From IMG/VR virus record IMGVR_UViG_3300045988_134667, positions 8,223 through 72,222 of that record: DNA of 64,000 nt. One strand, written 5' to 3'. This DNA comes from a virus. The position numbers were made by a program, and so were the translations under genes. This document shows, piece by piece, positions 5,352 to 63,348 of this stretch (position 1 is the stretch's first letter; the number at the start of each line of letters is the position of its first letter). The notes beneath the pieces are model-generated. The model searched no databases and had not been told where the DNA came from. It saw only the letters and a program-made list of their open reading frames with translations.

Positions 5352-5936
5352 TGATTGTCCTTTCTCATATTTTCTGATTATATATTCTCTATTTAAAATG
5401 TGATTATATGTCTACCCAAAATTATTTCTTCCTTATGTCAGAAATACCGTCCCTATCAAGGAACTATTTTTATGCTGTCGCCTATATTCATTCTATTTAC
5501 TGTTGTATACGTAATTTTAATAAGTAAAATTTGTTAGGCAAGGAAGTATAGGCTGGTATAGTTTAAATATTCTGTGTACAGTCCAGTTATTAGATTTCTG
5601 GCTAGAAAAGCAATTCTGAAGGTTGAATAGTGTGTTGGTATATTGTTTGAAATAAAAATATTCCTATAAAAGTTACATGGTAAGTTATTAAACGTTTCTG
5701 TTGTAATTAATGTTAAAATGCTCATAATTTCATTCCTTTCTTTTTTATGTTAAATGCGATTTATAAGATTCTGGTTAAATATTCTCTGTTTGATTTTATT
5801 TTTTGCATAAAAATAAGACAGTGTGATTACTGCCGTGATGATTTTGCGTGTAGTTTTATAGTAGCCCCTATGTTGGGGTTATATAATTTGGAATTTTATC
5901 AGAAAAATCGTTATCGGTAAAAGTGCTTATAAATAA

Positions 5937-6145
5937 GGAAGATTTTGGAATTGTGGATGGATTTTTGGTTAGATGGGAGTTTGATTTTTTGGTTGTGAAG
6001 TGACTGAAATGCTTGATTTTAGTGGGTTTTGACGATATGTGGCACGATAAGTGGTTTGAAGGGTGAAATTTTGGATTTTGCTTGATTTTGTTGTGGATTT
6101 TGAAGATTGGGAAGATGGTGGATTTTTGAGTTGGTGTGTGGATGA
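5937..6145. repeat. G+T-rich strand-asymmetric block with at least 8 degenerate copies of G(G)ATTTT(T)G; iteron-like, candidate replication origin
   Basis: Seen directly: GATTTTGG, GGATTTTTGG, GATTTTTTGG, GATTTTAG, GGATTTTG, GATTTTG, GGATTTTG and GGATTTTTG within about 200 bp. It sits in the divergent intergenic region between the minus- and plus-strand modules. Confidence 0.45.
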
Positions 6146-6346
6146 ATCAGCTATATGGTTTACTGCATTTCCAGCCTACCTAATTAGTTTTAACTACCCC
6201 CGGTTAGGCAAAAACAATGGATAATAGATATATATTATACATTCTTTTCGGATAGAACAAATGTTCGATAAAATCAGATCTGAATTATCTAAGTAGAACA
6301 TATGTTTGTATTATAATTTATCGTATTTTTTGAAAAAAAATGATAC

Positions 6347-6393
6347 TTGACTTTAGACAATCCATGTGATAGTATATAGTAAAGTCAAGTGAA
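6347..6393 (+). promoter_or_regulatory. sigma-A-type promoter P1 (TTGACT, 17 bp spacer, TAGTAT) followed by a GTCAAGTGAA box
   Basis: -35 at 6347-6352, -10 at 6370-6375, conserved box at 6384-6393. Confidence 0.6.
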
Positions 6394-6425
6394 CAAACAA
6401 TTTTTAAGAAATTAGAAATTGACTC

Positions 6426-6472
6426 TTGACAAGCAAAAGAACATCTGTTATACTTGTATCAAGTCAAGTGAA
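6426..6472 (+). promoter_or_regulatory. sigma-A-type promoter P2 (TTGACA, 17 bp spacer, TATACT) followed by a GTCAAGTGAA box
   Basis: -35 at 6426-6431, -10 at 6449-6454, box at 6463-6472. Confidence 0.65.
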
Positions 6473-6527
6473 TAACTAGGAAGTAACAAGACTTTAAACT
6501 TCTTTGCAAGCAATCCTAAAACAATAC

Positions 6528-6574
6528 TTGACAACAGACAAGTAACATGATATACTTTAAACAAGTCAAGCGAT
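6528..6574 (+). promoter_or_regulatory. sigma-A-type promoter P3 (TTGACA, 17 bp spacer, TATACT) followed by a GTCAAGCGAT box
   Basis: -35 at 6528-6533, -10 at 6551-6556, box at 6565-6574. Confidence 0.65.
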
Positions 6575-7138
6575 TGACTTAAATGTTCAAACTTATAGCT
6601 TATATATAGGGTAGCAACCTATAAATAGGGTGCAAAGTCTAGCACACCTTACACCCTTACATAGTGGATAGCATGAAACACGCTATACTTAGCAATTTTC
6701 ATTCTAGCATATTTCATGCAAAAATTCCACAAAAAGTTTGCATATCTTCAAAAGTGCCTTTGCGGATAGGTGGCAAGTGTTACGGCACAAACCACACTAC
6801 GAAAATAAGTTACGGCTTGTATTCTAACTATTTGCATTGCAATTCGGGGTGAAAATAGAGTGCCTACGTTCCCCAACTCGTAGGAATTGAATATTGAGGT
6901 CTGTATCTATATCCTAAAGGGGTTAGAGGTCATGAATGCTCAAGACTAAGCATGAATACTCTTTAGGGGCGTACGAAAGTACAACGGTGTGAGGTGCACT
7001 AGGTAAGGTGAGGAGGACGTTATAAAGCTACCAGTCTGCAAAGATTGACAGTTCCAAGTCTGTTAAAAGCTGAGGATAACAACGTACACAATAAAAATAC
7101 ATAGCACCGATTGCGTCAAGTCGGAGAAAGAGAACATT

Positions 7139-7804
7139 ATGAGTAAAACAACAACTAACACAACAGTAGCAACAAACAACGCTAAAGTTGACTTTTTCCA
7201 ATCAGCACGCACATTATCAACACGGACTTCAGAATTTTTCCGTTGTATTATCAAAAAAGCCGAACTCAATACAATCTATAGCTCTAAGATTGATGCTAAT
7301 GAAAAGAGCATTGCAGCCATTGATGACATGCTCGAAAAAGGTACTAACCTTGACGTAACCGTTGAGGATCTGAACCGGATGCGTACTAATTATGTAACTA
7401 TCAATGAAGGCTTAAAGGTTGAGTGGGATAAGTTGCTCAAAGAGCAGGCTTCTTTTGAGTACAACGAACACGACAAAAAATTCCGCAAAGCTATGAAAGA
7501 TGCTAAGTGCTTAGAAGATGTCAAGACAGCAGTAGAAAACTTCTATAAAGCTTATAAACTTAATGTAACAAATACAACATTCGAGACAGCAGTTCTTGAG
7601 TCAATCGGTAAGAAGATTGATACAAAAACCGTTGTAAAATCTAACGGTACAAAAGCTCTTAAGTATGACGTAACAAATGCACTTAAAAACCTTTATGGTG
7701 TAGGCTTTGAGTGGATGGTTGAAGCAGGAACTATCAAACCTGCTGATATTCCTAGTGTATTGACGGACAAATACACAAAGAAATCTAAGAAAAACAACAA
7801 ATAA
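7139..7804 (+). CDS. hypothetical protein (first plus-strand early gene)
   Basis: 221-aa ORF-track ORF downstream of the tandem promoters; SD GGAGAAAGAG. Confidence 0.7.
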   Translation: MSKTTTNTTVATNNAKVDFFQSARTLSTRTSEFFRCIIKKAELNTIYSSKIDANEKSIAAIDDMLEKGTNLDVTVEDLNRMRTNYVTINEGLKVEWDKLLKEQASFEYNEHDKKFRKAMKDAKCLEDVKTAVENFYKAYKLNVTNTTFETAVLESIGKKIDTKTVVKSNGTKALKYDVTNALKNLYGVGFEWMVEAGTIKPADIPSVLTDKYTKKSKKNNK

Positions 7805-7832
7805 TATGCAACCATAAAATGTATAGTTAGAG

Positions 7833-7861
7833 AGGGCAAGGTAAACACTTTGCCCTTTTTA
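7833..7861 (+). terminator. rho-independent terminator
   Basis: AGGGCAAG...CTTTGCCCT stem followed by TTTTTAT. Confidence 0.7.
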
Positions 7862-7894
7862 TAGTGTACATTTTTAATTAAGAAGGAAAACATT

Positions 7895-8207: not shown

Positions 8208-8276
8208 AAATGATAGCACTTGAAAAAAGTCAAATAATATGCTATCTTTGAATATATAAAAGGAGGCAAAAATTAT

Positions 8277-8558
8277 ATGATAGTATATTATAAACTTGAT
8301 ACACTTTTAAGCGAACGCAAAATAACAAAAACACAACTATGTAAAGATACCGGAATTAGCACTAATGTTGTGTCTAAAATAAGTAAAAATGAAGTATTTA
8401 AAACAGATACATTAAATCGTATCTGCGAATATCTCCATGTCCAACCAAGCGAAATCATGGAATGGATACCAGATGCAGAATATAACAAGGCAAATGCTGA
8501 AAAACAAGCTATAGAAGCTCAAATAGCTGAACTTCAAGCGAAACTAAAAACCATGTGA
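8277..8558 (+). CDS. XRE-family helix-turn-helix transcriptional regulator
   Basis: TKTQLCKDTGISTNVVSKISKNE...LNRICEYLHVQPSEI is a classic HTH_3 pattern. SD AAGGAGG. Confidence 0.75.
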   Translation: MIVYYKLDTLLSERKITKTQLCKDTGISTNVVSKISKNEVFKTDTLNRICEYLHVQPSEIMEWIPDAEYNKANAEKQAIEAQIAELQAKLKTM

Positions 8559-10273: not shown

Positions 10274-11203
10274 ATGTGTAAGAGAGTTTATTTAACAGCA
10301 AAAGAAGCAGAAATGGAAATGCAGGAATCACGGAACGCAGAAGGATTTACTGGCAAAATGGAAACTGATTATATTTCACGGATGATTAAGGACGCAAAAC
10401 GAAACAGTATGGTTGGAGATAAGCTTCAGCTTGTAGTAGATCCAATGTATATCCACATTCCTGAATGGCAGAGAAGATTAAAACTTACAAGAGCATACGC
10501 AATCGGTAATACATATAACAAATACAAATGGGATGTTCCGAAGGTACTGTTCCACAAAGGCAGATTGTATGTTATTGATGGTCAGCACAGAATATATGGC
10601 GCATTTAAGGCGAAAATGGATTCCGTAGTGGTTGAAATCATGGAATGTTCACTCGAAGAAGCAATTGATTTGTTTATCAATCAGTCACAGGATAGAGTGA
10701 AAATGCAGCCTATGGATATTTATAAGGCTGCTATTGCAGGTGGTAAGGGAGATTATGTGAAATTACAGGAAATTTGTCACAAGAATAATGTTGCAGTAAA
10801 AGGAGATGATGATAATGAAAACACAGTAGGAACGCTTACATCTATTTCTGATGGAGTAAAGTTGTCAAAGACAAACCCAGAGCTTCTTGATTCAATGCTT
10901 GCTCTGCTTGGAAAGCTTGGTTGGAACGGATATGCAGATTCTTACAACGGAAAAGCATATACCGCAAAAATTATTCGTGCTTTAAAAGCATTATATGCAT
11001 ACACAGAAGGCAGAACAGATGAAATGGAGAAAGCCTTAATTAAGCATTATAAAGGAACTGAATATTTTGTTGAGAATGTAATGGATAAAACACAAGCACA
11101 AATTTTTGATTATTTGTCTGAAATTGTCCGTTATGAAATGGAAAGTCCATTTACAGATAAAAATAAAACTGCAAAGAAAACAGCAAAAGTAAAAGCAATG
11201 TAA
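10274..11203 (+). CDS. ParB/sulfiredoxin-superfamily nuclease-domain protein with a DGQHR motif (DndB-like)
   Basis: YVIDGQHRIYGAF motif; SD AAGGAGG. Confidence 0.65.
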   Translation: MCKRVYLTAKEAEMEMQESRNAEGFTGKMETDYISRMIKDAKRNSMVGDKLQLVVDPMYIHIPEWQRRLKLTRAYAIGNTYNKYKWDVPKVLFHKGRLYVIDGQHRIYGAFKAKMDSVVVEIMECSLEEAIDLFINQSQDRVKMQPMDIYKAAIAGGKGDYVKLQEICHKNNVAVKGDDDNENTVGTLTSISDGVKLSKTNPELLDSMLALLGKLGWNGYADSYNGKAYTAKIIRALKALYAYTEGRTDEMEKALIKHYKGTEYFVENVMDKTQAQIFDYLSEIVRYEMESPFTDKNKTAKKTAKVKAM

Positions 11204-29043: not shown

Positions 29044-29325
29044 GTGGAATATAGTATGGAAAATTATAAAATTAGTTATAATGGTGATACTCAAATTAAA
29101 AATATTCACCATATAGGTGTTGATTATAATGGAAATTATTATAGCGTGATTTTCGGAGAATATGTAAATGGAGGATTCTTTAGTATTCCGAACTGGAATT
29201 GCGGTGGTGAGTTAGCTGGGCTTAGTGATGTGTTTTGGAATACAGAATCTATTCAGAAATCATTAAAAAGTAAAAGAGCAGCTAAAGCTATTGCAAAAGC
29301 GATAGAAGATTACACAAAGGAGTGA
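29044..29325 (+). CDS. hypothetical protein
   Basis: ORF track. Confidence 0.5.
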   Translation: MEYSMENYKISYNGDTQIKNIHHIGVDYNGNYYSVIFGEYVNGGFFSIPNWNCGGELAGLSDVFWNTESIQKSLKSKRAAKAIAKAIEDYTKE

Positions 29326-30326
29326 TGATTATGTGTTACAAAATAGAAGTACAAAACAAAAATGCTGAAAAGCTTAATAGGAAGTTGGATGAGTTAAACG
29401 CACCACAGTTTTTAAGAGATTACTTGAATGAGTTGGAAAGCAAGAACGGAGCGTTAAATTATCTAGTGGCAATTAAAGATTTTTTACAGTGGTTGATTGA
29501 AAGCAATATTATTAATAAGAAATCAATTTCTGAAATAGAAGTTTCTGATTTTAGTGACTTGCGACCACAAAATATTAGTTCATACCTTAGATACAAGGAA
29601 ACAAATGGAATGTCGCCAACCACAACGGAGACAAGAAAAAATATCATTAAAAGTTTCATACAGGATATTTATTCATACAGAGAATGTTTATTAAGAGAAA
29701 TTTATAGCAACATAGAAGATTTTTACAAAATGATTAAATATAAAGGAATCCCATCTGGTAATAACTTGACTAAAAAACTTCCAACAGAAAAGCAGCTTAA
29801 TGATATGGAAGAGAAAATAATGTGGAAGAAAGATGAATGTGTGAGGAATAGGAATATTGCTATCTTTCGAGTTTTAAGAGGAACTGGAATAAGAGAATCT
29901 GAACTTGCCGGTTTGGATTTATCAGATTTACATTTAGATGAAGAAATGCCATATATTACTATTCTTGGTAAAGGTGTGTACAGAGAAATGCAAAACAGAA
30001 CTGTATATCTTAGCGGATCTGCTCTGAAGGCATTAAGAGAATGGTTAGAATACAGAAGTACCTTAGATAATATTGTAGATACGGAAGCAGTTTTTGTAAA
30101 TAAAAACGGTACACGTACAACAGAAAGAAATATCAAACAGATATTTGAAAATTATGGCAATGGAATTACACCACATATGATGAGACATTATTATGCTAGT
30201 GTAATGAATCAGAATGGGAATCTTGCATTTGTACAACAGCAGCTTGGGCATAGTAGTGTGAATACAACGGTTAATAATTATGCAAACGGAGCTGTTGGAA
30301 TGAAAGAAAAATTAATGGAGATGTGA
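29325..30326 (+). CDS. int: tyrosine recombinase / phage integrase
   Basis: C-terminal catalytic signature RGTGIRESEL ... HMMRHYYAS ... LGHSSVNTTVNNY (R, H-x-x-R and the Tyr nucleophile). Confidence 0.8.
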   Translation: MIMCYKIEVQNKNAEKLNRKLDELNAPQFLRDYLNELESKNGALNYLVAIKDFLQWLIESNIINKKSISEIEVSDFSDLRPQNISSYLRYKETNGMSPTTTETRKNIIKSFIQDIYSYRECLLREIYSNIEDFYKMIKYKGIPSGNNLTKKLPTEKQLNDMEEKIMWKKDECVRNRNIAIFRVLRGTGIRESELAGLDLSDLHLDEEMPYITILGKGVYREMQNRTVYLSGSALKALREWLEYRSTLDNIVDTEAVFVNKNGTRTTERNIKQIFENYGNGITPHMMRHYYASVMNQNGNLAFVQQQLGHSSVNTTVNNYANGAVGMKEKLMEM

Positions 30327-30328
30327 TT

Positions 30329-30523
30329 ATGGTTGAATATATTGGAAATAAAATCAGAACTGAAAAGAGAATAACAGTAAGAGGACTGGCAAAAGCTGCC
30401 GAAGTTGCTCCAAGTACGATTAGCAAGTGGGAAAATGGAAGTGCTGTTCCTGACTTAGCTGTACTTGATTTGGTTGCCAAAGCTATGAAAGTGCAACCAT
30501 TTGATCTTGTTAAATTTGTGTAA
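30329..30523 (+). CDS. XRE-family HTH regulator
   Basis: ITVRGLAKAAEVAPSTISKWENGSAVPDLAVLDLVAKAM. Confidence 0.65.
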   Translation: MVEYIGNKIRTEKRITVRGLAKAAEVAPSTISKWENGSAVPDLAVLDLVAKAMKVQPFDLVKFV

Positions 30524-30536
30524 TATGTATACGACA

Positions 30537-30755
30537 CTATTTCTTAGTGTCGCAGATAAAAATATCGTTTGGTGTACAATTTAACGCCTGGCATATTTTC
30601 TCGATAGTATCAAAACGAATGCTTTTTGTTTTTTCATTACAAATGTCACCAATATTATTACTAGAAATTCCAGTAGTTTTAGATAACCAATACTGTGTTT
30701 TCTTTTGATCTGCAAGAATTTGTTTGAGGTTTATTCTCATATTATATTCCTCCAT
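30537..30755 (-). CDS. XRE-family HTH regulator (repressor-like, divergent from the toxin operon)
   Basis: KKTQYWLSKTTGISSNNIGDICNEKTKSIRFDTIEKICQAL. Confidence 0.65.
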   Translation of the reverse strand: MEEYNMRINLKQILADQKKTQYWLSKTTGISSNNIGDICNEKTKSIRFDTIEKICQALNCTPNDIFICDTKK

Positions 30756-30810
30756 ATAAATTATTTAAAAATATAATACCAAAAAATATCATATTTTTCA
30801 ATAATATATC

Positions 30811-30839
30811 TTGACATATGATATGCATGGGTATATAAT
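30811..30839 (+). promoter_or_regulatory. consensus promoter TTGACA, 17 bp spacer, TATAAT, with flanking inverted repeat ATATCATAT / ATATGATAT
   Basis: -35 at 30811-30816 and -10 at 30834-30839. The operator-like inverted repeat straddles the -35, in the divergent region between the two HTH genes and the toxin gene. Confidence 0.65.
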
Positions 30840-30911
30840 GCAAAGCATAAGAAGTAAACAAGAAGCAAACAAAACGTAGGACATTACATAAGAAGAAAGG
30901 AGGTAAAAGGA

Positions 30912-31881: not shown

Positions 31882-31954
31882 AGGGCATTCGCCAAGTGGT
31901 AAGGCACAGGATTTTGATTCCTGCATTACATCAGTTCGAATCTGATATGCCCTG
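31882..31954 (+). tRNA. tRNA-Gln (anticodon UUG)
   Basis: Cloverleaf with acceptor AGGGCAT/ATGCCCT, D-arm GCCAAGTGGTAAGGC, anticodon stem CAGGA/TCCTG with loop TTTTGAT, and T-loop TTCGAAT. Architecture is nearly identical to E. coli tRNA-Gln. Confidence 0.8.
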
Positions 31955-32113
31955 CTTTGTGACATTCCACCCGGTATGTTACAGAACGCAAGTGATTTCC
32001 TTGTAAGAGCAAAATGTGTAGTTGCTATAGTTCTACCATAGTTTAATCCACTAACGGATTACAAGCTGATACTATAGAACTTCCTGATAAACTTGCGATA
32101 GTGTCAGCTACTT

Positions 32114-32187
32114 GGATCATTAGCACAATTGGTTAGTGCATTCGGCTCATAACCGAAAGGCTCAGAGTTCAAGTCTCTGATGATCCA
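32114..32187 (+). tRNA. tRNA-Met or initiator/Ile-lysidine type (anticodon CAU)
   Basis: Acceptor GGATCAT/ATGATCC, D-arm GCACAATTGGTTAGTGC, anticodon stem TTCGG/CCGAA with loop CTCATAA, T-arm CAGAGTTCAAGTCTCTG. Confidence 0.8.
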
Positions 32188-32212
32188 TTGCTAAATCAAA
32201 CAAAGAGAGGAG

Positions 32213-62490: not shown

Positions 62491-63348
62491 ATGCCAGTAC
62501 ATGATGATTTAGGCGTTAGGATGAAGACATTTTATGAGCAGATCCCAAAGACAAAACTGATGAGAAGGTGTCCAGTTGCTATCCGCATTGATGGAAAAGC
62601 GTTTCACACATTCACAAGAGGATTCCAGAAACCGTTTGATGAAGTGTTAATTAAGTCTATGCAGGAAACAATGAAATACTTATGTGAGAATATTCAGGGC
62701 TGTGTTCTTGGTTACACGCAGTCAGATGAGATTACACTAATTCTTATTGATTATAAGAAGCTCACATCTTCCGCATGGTTTGATTATGAAGTGCAAAAGA
62801 TTTGTAGTATTGCTGCAAGTATGGCTACGATGGCATTTAATACATTCTTTGCTAAAAATGTTTATTTTACTGATAAGTTTGATGAACATGGGAATATCAT
62901 TGACGAAGAATATGTTTCTATTCATTTAGCCCATGTCAAAGCAGTTGACAAAGGTGCAATGTTCGATGCTCGTTGTTTCAATATTCCAAAAGAAGAAGTG
63001 ACAAATCTCATATATTGGAGACAATTAGACGCTTCTCGTAATTCAATTCAGATGGTAGGTCAAGCCAATTTTTCACACAAGGAATTACAGAATAAGTCAT
63101 GTAATGATATTCAAAACATGCTTATGACTCAGAAAGATATTAACTGGAACGATTTACCGACTTATCAGAAGAGAGGAAGCTGTTGTGTAAAAATGTATCA
63201 GACTGCTAATGGTGTTTTTGAAAGTCATGCAGAAGATGAATTAGTCGAAAATGGCAGGACATATTGGAGTATTGATACAAATATCCCTATTTTCAAGGGC
63301 GAAGGTAGAGAATATATTGATAGGTTAGTATTCGTTGGTGAAGAGTAA
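62491..63348 (+). CDS. Thg1-like protein (tRNA-His guanylyltransferase / 3'-5' nucleotidyltransferase family)
   Basis: VAIRIDGKAFHTFTRGFQKPFDEVLIKSM resembles the Thg1 N-terminal catalytic-core segment. MFDARCFNIPKEEVTNLIYWRQLD matches the downstream Thg1 WRQ region. Confidence 0.6.
   Translation: MPVHDDLGVRMKTFYEQIPKTKLMRRCPVAIRIDGKAFHTFTRGFQKPFDEVLIKSMQETMKYLCENIQGCVLGYTQSDEITLILIDYKKLTSSAWFDYEVQKICSIAASMATMAFNTFFAKNVYFTDKFDEHGNIIDEEYVSIHLAHVKAVDKGAMFDARCFNIPKEEVTNLIYWRQLDASRNSIQMVGQANFSHKELQNKSCNDIQNMLMTQKDINWNDLPTYQKRGSCCVKMYQTANGVFESHAEDELVENGRTYWSIDTNIPIFKGEGREYIDRLVFVGEE

Follow-up and report, generated by a model that had tools for sequence, protein, structure and literature searches.

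A 64,000-nucleotide (nt) stretch of viral DNA, positions 8,223 to 72,222 of the IMG/VR record IMGVR_UViG_3300045988_134667 (hereafter the window), contains an array of three tandem promoters (P1 to P3) that feeds a long untranslated leader and the gene behind it (gene 1). At its predicted start of transcription each promoter carries the same short sequence, the box, which is an inverted copy of the -35 element, a relationship that the original prediction had missed. Judging from modelled RNA folds, the box is probably a 5'-terminal RNA helix element of the stacked promoter array, pairing the first nucleotides of each transcript with a complementary segment further downstream. The best overall explanation combines the stacked promoters, an RNA helix that stabilises transcripts from their 5' end, and shut-off by a repressor of the XRE type acting through palindromes over the -35 elements; taken as a whole, we give it an even chance of being correct.

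A shared element in three tandem promoters

The promoters lie on the plus strand where the original prediction had placed them, with the architecture that it had described (TTGAC(T/A), 17 base pairs (bp), TA(G/T)A(T/C)T). P1 (6347-6375), which is conserved in relatives, has the -35 TTGACT (6347-6352), a 17-bp spacer ending in TGA and the -10 TAGTAT (6370-6375). P2 (6426-6454) and P3 (6528-6556) both combine TTGACA with TATACT, the latter at 6449 and 6551, across 17-bp spacers ending in TGT and TGA, respectively. Against the sigma-A/sigma-70 consensus (TTGACA, 17 +/- 1 bp, TATAAT, optional TGn) P1 matches at 9 of 12 positions and P2 and P3 at 11 of 12 each, and the promoter starts are spaced by 79 bp and then 102 bp. 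When the three units are aligned, two invariant blocks stand out besides the hexamers: a C at -36, which extends the -35 to CTTGAC, and the 8-mer AAGTCAAG followed by N-G-A (box positions 10-11 being GA). The 8-mer begins exactly 6 nt past each -10, at 6382, 6461 and 6563, and because of this fixed distance its first A is the expected +1; A6382, A6461 and A6563 would then be the start sites of three active promoters. The motif reported earlier, GTCAAG(T/C)GA(A/T), is real and is part of this longer block (AAGTCAAG plus GA); it had been put at 8-10 nt past the -10 and in fact always begins exactly 8 nt past it, at 6384, 6463 and 6565. The view of the locus as a stacked promoter array with a shared element in the +1 region holds.

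The box is not scattered over the window at random. GTCAAGYGAW occurs four times where 0.44 copies are expected, a number reached in 0 of 100 shuffles, and the fourth copy (55390) has no promoter; exact matches to AAGTYAAGNGA are found at the three array promoters only. None of the hexamer pairs beyond the array carries the box, among the 43 in the window that score at least 10 of 12, including those at 30811 (12/12), 31654 and 23511. GTCAAG is the reverse complement of CTTGAC, the extended -35, and therefore an inverted repeat brackets each promoter. Around P1 there is a perfect 11-bp inverted repeat, ACTTGACTTTA (6345-6355) and TAAAGTCAAGT (6380-6390), which is specific to the window, the relatives carrying ATAGTCAAGTCAAG. 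An antisense promoter arising from the inverted TTGAC was considered and rejected on reading the sequence, as the minus strand has no usable -10.

A motif repeated in tandem units could be a functionless relic of a duplicated ancestral promoter unit. P1 and P3 are paralogous, with 21 of 34 positions outside the hexamers identical, and in one related locus (L085) the promoter unit has recently been duplicated once more. We nevertheless regard a relic as very improbable: the spacers of P1/P3 and of P2 have diverged to about background whereas the 8-mer is identical at 8 of 8 positions in all three units, and it is kept in arrays whose spacers are unrelated.

Beyond the window, the pattern CTTGAC-N18-TANNNT-N6-AAGTCAAG matches 70 viral contigs in IMG/VR, about 38 of which are related phages of 95-157 kb with two to three tandem copies and the same 79/102 spacing. 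In unrelated viral contigs AAGTCAAG is found after CTTGAC-N18-TANNNT at every offset from 0 to 24, without an excess at 6 among the matches listed, and 596 Gb of bacterial genomes yielded 83 singletons across all phyla, about the number expected by chance, and zero arrays. The box as a general feature of the host or its polymerase was rejected on these grounds, and it is rather a trait of this phage lineage. One G+C-rich and apparently unrelated viral contig (L046, 59-200) has two tandem promoters with AAGTTAAGAGGT and AAGTCAAGAGGG at the same offset, probably by chance combined with local duplication.

Since everything is 80-100% conserved in the closest relatives, a phylogenetic footprint is uninformative there. 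More can be learned from 22 loci that were fetched through the protein of gene 1, that is, without selection for the box. At least two array classes precede the same gene 1, which is 84-97% identical across these loci: class 1 is the type of the window, and class 2 has two promoters, the second with AAGTTAAGAGAT at the same offset and the first without a box. Some array promoters of relatives lack the box (e.g. ATCAACAAAACA), and further array types begin with TGTCAAGAGGTTGACA, TGTCGAAAGGACA and the like.

Predicted pairing at the 5' end of the transcripts

RNA folding with ViennaRNA, with the first A of the box taken as +1, predicts a paired 5' end for all three transcripts. Box 1 (AAGTCAAGTGAA, 6382-6393, plus strand) and box 2 (AAGTCAAGTGAA, 6461-6472, plus strand) are the predicted nt +1 to +12 of the P1 and P2 RNAs, and in both RNAs nt 3-8 pair with the next CUUGAC at a pairing probability of 0.9-1.0. 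In the P1 RNA the predicted partners are 6384-6389 and 6425-6430 (CTTGAC of P2); in the P2 RNA the predicted helix takes in nt 3-10 and joins 6463-6470 to AUACUUGAC of P3 (6525-6532). Box 3 has a dedicated partner, AAGTCAA-GCGA-TTGACTT (6563-6580, plus strand), and the two are predicted to fold into a 5'-terminal hairpin of 7 bp capped by a GNRA loop (-6.4 kcal/mol, z -2.9), for which relatives have GCGA or GUGA. The TTGACT within the partner has no -10 behind it, so that it is not a promoter. A second GNRA-looped hairpin, CAAUUUUUAA-GAAA-UUAGAAAUUG (6398-6421, plus strand), is nested inside the P1 5' helix and retained in most relatives. Given the predicted starts, the helices begin at nt 1 (P3) or nt 3 (P1 and P2), within the few nucleotides of the 5' end that define a 5'-terminal stem-loop. 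The other strong promoters at 30811, 31654 and 8220 (the last that of the XRE gene) have unpaired 5' ends in their minimum-energy folds, with a pairing probability of about 0 for the first two, and at the promoters 23511 and 8220 a ribosome-binding site lies a few nucleotides from the start.

In relatives, the last promoter of the array always keeps a complementary segment that is not a promoter. The loops closed by these helices measure 4 (GCGA or GUGA), 9, 9, 10 and 12 nt, with unrelated sequences, or about 42-56 nt, and a perfect hairpin of at least 5 bp from nt 1-3 is present in 7 of 9 types of last or first promoter, against a genome null frequency of 0.088. In class 2 (L071, L078, L079, L081, L086, L088 and L092) the 12-nt box AAGUUAAGAGAU always occurs with the partner AUCUCAAAACUU at +54 to +68, three different inserts being found between the two; in L088 a C-to-U change in this partner turns a G-C pair into G.U. 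The box variants AAGTTAAG and AAGTCGAG are likewise transitions that keep the CUUGAC pairing via G.U. A compensatory change connects the +10 region of the box-less class-2 promoter with the upstream flank of the next promoter (CAACAAC/GUUGUUG vs CAACUAC/GUAGUUG); the box itself shows zero double compensatory changes among relatives. A shuffle test of 5' pairing (0.73 observed vs 0.44 shuffled) is supportive but partly circular, because the array guarantees a downstream TTGAC. The variable loop length, the GNRA loops, the tolerance of G.U and the occurrence of both arm orientations are in keeping with an RNA helix and not with a symmetric site for a protein dimer. Of the two roles that had been proposed for the box at the outset, an element at the 5' end of the transcript and an operator, the comparative data, with a partner kept in relatives across variable loops, favour the first.

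How such an element might work can be outlined as follows. The host RNA polymerase would read P1, P2 and P3 as three stacked promoters of the sigma-A/sigma-70 type, and the box would form the first 8-12 transcribed nucleotides, 5'-AAGUCAAG(N)GA, and act mainly as RNA. Nucleotides 3-8 (GUCAAG) would pair with a downstream CUUGAC, which for P1 and P2 is the extended -35 of the next promoter, and at the last promoter the dedicated UUGACUU 4 nt away would take over as helix partner. Since each box finds a downstream partner, every transcript, whichever promoter it came from, would have a helix 0-2 nt from its 5' end. This helix may shield the long ribosome-free leader from decay that depends on the 5' end, of the RNase J1 type, in the manner of the 5' stem-loop stabilisers of Firmicutes. 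Stabilisation of the leader is the mechanism that we favour, at evenly balanced confidence and by analogy, because in Bacillus subtilis long untranslated RNAs are known to be stabilised by a hairpin upstream, located at their 5' end or close to it (review PMC3997798).

Several points weigh against a stabilising RNA helix. The start positions are predictions, and if they were off by a few nucleotides, the overhang at the 5' end would be a different one. At 6-8 bp and -6 to -8 kcal/mol the helices are short, and those of P1 and P2 close loops of 35-54 nt, so that they are possible only once about 50-70 nt have been transcribed; the P1 helix of the window contains a U.U mismatch that is absent from relatives. 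Pairing between a box and the next -35 is partly automatic, given that the box is the inverse of TTGAC, and in the closest relatives the two helix arms hardly vary, which leaves no true covariation among them. The benefit for gene 1 is unclear, because a ribozyme of the twister type predicted ahead of this gene would cut the protected 5' end off its mRNA. At 6452-6469, moreover, ACTTG-N8-CAAGT forms a perfect palindrome that uses box 2, where a role as DNA is possible. Finally, conservation of the box extends to cases in which its partner could vary freely, a hint of an extra constraint on the box, such as promoter escape or a conserved factor.

Promoter escape would be central if the box were an initial-transcribed-sequence element that tunes the choice of start site, escape or promoter strength, in a manner akin to phage T5 and with neither RNA structure nor repressor involved. 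The fixed offset from the -10, the beginning at +1 with an A and the constancy of the box next to changeable partners would suit this role. It is improbable all the same, as equally strong or stronger promoters of the same phage do without the box, as do some array promoters of relatives, and outside the lineage AAGTCAAG has no preference for the offset among the matches listed in the viral scan; the dedicated complementary segments downstream would also be left unexplained.

A conserved factor, for its part, could bind the box as DNA or RNA, and would have to be present in all relatives, as the product of gene 1 or a host protein would be. The constancy of the box across the different classes of XRE protein described below and the 84-97% identity of gene 1 speak for such a factor, and some relatives have TGTCGAA at +1 of their first promoter. 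The box somewhat resembles the consensus sequences of Spo0A (TGTCGAA) and CtsR (AGTCAAA), although its matches to these, and to the cre consensus, are partial only. The variants of the box show no drift toward the Spo0A or the CtsR consensus, gene 1 has no recognisable nucleic-acid-binding domain and the bacterial genomes show no enrichment of the box, so that we hold a conserved factor to be slightly less probable still than an element acting on the initially transcribed sequence.

The XRE protein and its candidate operators

Downstream of gene 1 the window encodes an XRE/Cro-type protein of 93 amino acids (8277-8558, plus strand) whose N-terminal helix-turn-helix (HTH) domain co-varies with the type of array. 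Its identity to the window copy follows the array type, with values of 34-100%; gene 1, which lies in between, remains 84-97% identical. Class 1 and its close variants have XRE proteins 80-100% identical to the window copy; the value is 68% in L081, 56-62% in arrays of the ATCACAC type, 47-51% in the other class-2 types (L071, L078, L079 and L088-L090) and 34-35% in L086, L087 and L092. The variation is confined to the N-terminal HTH, and the C-terminal coiled coil is conserved. Where the recognition helix is the same, so is the palindrome: L081 and L071 share the helix NMPTRFS, and each of them carries ATCACAA-N4-TTGTGAT at the XRE promoter as well as in the array; the NMPAKFS class has ATCACAC...GTGTGAT in both places. 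On sequence grounds, this pairing of helix and palindrome is the textbook pattern for a repressor and its operator. The 7-N4-7 palindromes have a fixed geometry, recur at the promoter of the putative repressor itself and track its recognition helix; this holds clearly in the ATCACAA and ATCACAC classes and plausibly for the ACTTGAC sites of the window. Across the loci L011-L092 the XRE N-terminal HTH thus swaps together with the 18-bp palindromes, with at least five specificities, in the manner of an immunity-like module.

In the window, the best candidate operator is ACTTGAC-AACA-GACAAGT (6526-6543; strand not assigned), 18 bp that overlie the -35 of P3. Weaker candidates lie at 6345-6362, 6417-6434, 6452-6469 and 6554-6571, the last two with box 2 and box 3, respectively, as their right arm; the site at 6452-6469 has perfect ACTTG/CAAGT arms and departs from the full 7-N4-7 consensus at 2 of 14 positions, and that at 6554-6571 is weak. 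Each array promoter has one palindromic site overlapping its -35. An operator-like ACTTGAA-AAAA-GTCAAAT (8218-8235; strand not assigned) also covers the -35 of the XRE promoter (TTGAAA at 8220, 17 bp, TATCTT). The 64 kb hold eight sites within three mismatches of ACTTGACNNNNGTCAAGT, six of them in the array or the XRE promoter, where 2.8 would be expected in total. The XRE protein (8277) would probably shut the array off by binding the 18-bp palindromes ACTTGAC-N4-G(T/A)CAAGT that overlap the -35 regions; in P2 and P3 one operator arm may be provided by the box.

Whether the box is chiefly an operator is a separate question. Its GTCAAGT mirrors the half-site ACTTGAC, and an XRE repressor might bind it as a DNA half-site; combined with ACTTG, which lies toward the 3' end of the -10 (TATACTTG), it would make up a second 18-bp operator from -9 to +9, and the start site as well as the -35 would be covered by the repressor. 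The co-variation of XRE and array type is in keeping with this, as is the distribution of ACTTG-N8-CAAGT, which occurs in exact form only twice in 64 kb, both times in the array and once by way of box 2, and with one mismatch at the XRE promoter. The array is altogether a cluster of operator-like sites, and other XRE classes have the same 7-N4-7 geometry. Against a chief role as operator, the box of P1 has no left arm and that of P3 a poor one (4 of 7), and the XRE promoter has the -35 site without a +1 box. The arms of the P3 palindrome AAGTCAA-N4-TTGACTT are oppositely oriented, and the spacing from the box to its inverted copy ranges from 4 to about 55 nt among relatives. Nor does the box follow the XRE class: phages that differ in recognition helix and spacer palindromes keep it unchanged, at least four recognition helices being found alongside AAGTTAAGAGAT and two alongside AAGTCAAG. 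We therefore consider both the box as a half-site and the second operator over the start unlikely, and locate the putative operator in the -35 palindrome; in P2 and P3 the box would be a secondary arm at best. The earlier proposal that the box is an operator for an early repressor, with the XRE protein of 8277 among the candidates, is half right. Protein and array do co-vary; it is the palindromes over the -35 elements and spacers and at the repressor's own promoter that follow the recognition helix, and not the box.

The leader, its setting and comparison with known systems

The array had been taken to point toward the first early gene. Gene 1 (7139-7804, plus strand; 221 amino acids, ribosome-binding site GGAGAAAGAG) is indeed the first gene that it feeds, though about 560 nt of structured, ribozyme-containing leader lie in between, and that the gene is early is an assumption. 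Its product belongs to no Pfam or PHROG family and has 310 database relatives, the best 120 of the 310 being 94-99% identical. A terminator-like hairpin, GGGCAA..TTGCCC with a T-run (7834-7860, plus strand; -20.1 kcal/mol, z -4.5), would end the transcription unit. Hairpins of this strong, terminator-like kind belong to a recurrent cassette, ATAGTTAGA-hairpin-TTTTATAGTGTG, and are always followed by TATAGTGT (7820-7870 in the window; also in L011, L047, L015 and L043, where the cassette is located upstream of the XRE gene or the first gene).

The leader itself is modular and untranslated (6581-7018, plus strand), with a conserved structured core at about 6735-6860 around which modules have been shuffled among relatives. 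It folds better than shuffled sequences (-125.5 kcal/mol, z -3.5), and six compensatory pairs are found in the core. An open reading frame (ORF) at 6664-6852 was rejected as coding, because relatives carry single-nucleotide indels there. Small ORFs with ribosome-binding sites do occur in the leaders of some relatives (about 2262-2366 in L081, 2175-2279 in L088 and 2419-2505 in L071) and encode a 34-amino-acid MVKGY...EQDYLEYIA peptide and a 28-amino-acid hydrophobic peptide; the leader of the window has none. In L015 (4700-4750) the leader includes a tRNA/tmRNA-like T-arm, GGTTCAATTCCCAC, with a weak Rfam match to a tmRNA 3' end.

Besides twister, the Rfam search of the leader found no family. 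The candidate ribozyme, of the self-cleaving Twister-P1 type (7019-7080, plus strand), lies 58 nt upstream of the ATG of gene 1 and is predicted to cleave between U7023 and A7024. The match is full-length but below the Rfam gathering score (48.3 bits vs 67.2, E = 1.6e-9 to 7e-9), and recurs in 8 of the 10 relatives scanned, L014 having a diverged copy. With L014 in the alignment, the stems P1, P2 and P4 covary, 96.4% of cells being paired with five compensatory pairs, a result equalled in 0 of 500 shuffles. In the twister architecture loop L4 pairs with L1 and L2 to form the pseudoknots T1 and T2 (PMC6154101). By our own assignment of residues, the columns concerned are complementary (AC/GU and UCC/GGA) and invariant, and where the core departs from the consensus it does so in a compensated manner (ACC with AAGU, UCC with GGA) that would preserve both pseudoknots. 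The locus would be a clear case of a phage transcription unit with a candidate twister between leader and first gene, and what self-cleaving ribozymes do biologically in bacteria has yet to be settled (PMC6765202).

Between the array starts and the twister lie 460-640 nt of leader RNA, and in L011 and L047 a strong terminator-like hairpin takes the position of the twister, for which reason the leader may be a separate RNA. The main product of the three promoters could in that case be not an mRNA but an abundant structured non-coding RNA of about 460-640 nt and of no described family, with the box helix at its 5' end and the twister (in L011 and L047 the terminator) at its 3' end, a suggestion that we advance as doubtful.

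The array and leader lie in a 1.4-kb non-coding stretch in a large, phage-like element of low G+C content, between leftward genes that end at about 5725 and the first rightward gene at 7139, from which point nearly all genes are on the plus strand. In addition to the three promoters (6347-6556) and the 560-nt leader, this stretch holds a G-rich repeat zone at the GC-skew switch and a LexA-type box. The G/T-rich zone (5900-6160, and around 5450), with GGATTTTG-like repeats and a GC skew of up to 0.71, sits just to the right of the cumulative GC-skew minimum, where leftward and rightward genes diverge, and could be an origin or packaging region. The LexA (Cheo)-type box, GAACAAATGTTC (6255-6266; strand not assigned), lies upstream of P1 and is the sole exact GAAC-N4-GTTC in the window; in relatives its copy occupies the spacer of a good promoter (TTGATA-17-TAAAAT), a placement that suggests an SOS-controlled promoter reading into the array. 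Further boxes of this type are present upstream of the array and inside it (6296-6307 and 6439-6450). Elsewhere in the window, a tyrosine recombinase/integrase gene (29322-30326) adjoins more small HTH genes with a divergent, near-perfect promoter pair (30271-30850; 12/12 at 30811), and there is a ParB-like gene at 10274-11203. The integrase, the ParB-like gene and the LexA box together indicate that the element may be temperate or a phage-plasmid and not strictly lytic. It also carries genes for tRNA-Gln (31882-31955), tRNA-Met (32113-32188) and a Thg1-like tRNA-His guanylyltransferase (62491-63348). Its best protein matches, at about 60% identity, are to large Bacillus and Clostridioides phages; a DNA search of 50,697 phage records with the locus gave no match, meaning that no close relative is among these sequenced phages, and proteins near-identical to its own are very common in human-associated metagenomes.

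If the proposed mechanism is correct, a single 8-nt sequence would solve a design problem of stacked promoters, in which three starts generate three RNAs: all would be capped by a helix at the 5' end and, the box being the inverse of the -35 hexamer, the protective partner of each transcript would be the next promoter. In addition, a very common human-associated phage lineage here provides naturally swapped HTH recognition helices, each with its matching candidate operators.

Several known systems resemble parts of the locus. In the early region of phage T7, the tandem promoters A1, A2 and A3 and then the RNase III site R0.3 precede gene 0.3. Here, too, three strong promoters for the host polymerase within about 250 bp head one transcription unit, and a common leader is predicted to be cleaved at a specific position ahead of the first gene. 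Unlike in T7, the promoters are of the Firmicute type with TGn-extended -10 elements, the cut would be made by a candidate twister ribozyme and not by host RNase III, and the leader is much longer and structured; we know of no +1 box shared by the T7 promoters. A parallel in this last respect is offered by the early promoters of phage T5, whose conserved +1 to +20 region is said to act on promoter clearance, in work ascribed to Gentz and Bujard in 1985 and Kammerer et al. in 1986. Both cases have a common sequence in the initial transcribed region of very strong phage promoters, but the sequences are unrelated and the T5 element has no described RNA partner. The match to Twister-P1 (RF03160) extends over P1, P2, P3, P4, the U-A cleavage site and the L4 loop CCAAG, and differs in its score of 45-50 bits and in a core of ACC/AAGU/UCC/GGA where the consensus has GCC/AAGC/CCC/GGG.

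The XRE gene and the palindromes are reminiscent of the lambdoid immunity regions (CI/Cro, OR/OL), in which the recognition region of a small HTH protein likewise swaps together with multiple 17-18-bp palindromes over strong promoters and its own promoter. The XRE gene, however, lies 1.1 kb downstream of the array, past a conserved gene, and unlike in lambdoid CI/Cro only its N-terminal HTH is exchanged, the C-terminal coiled coil staying constant. The predicted helix near the 5' end of a long untranslated leader resembles the 5' stabilisers of the B. subtilis aprE leader, E. coli ompA and phage SP82 (PMC3997798), the last of which is a polypurine sequence resembling a ribosome-binding site and not a hairpin. 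With aprE and ompA it would share the expected effect, protection from 5'-end-dependent decay; it differs from them in that the 3' arm is the -35 of the next promoter and that one 8-mer serves the whole array. Familiar elements are thus joined in the locus: promoters stacked in tandem, a probable stem-loop at the 5' end of their transcripts and, resembling an immunity region, a module of HTH protein and candidate operators.

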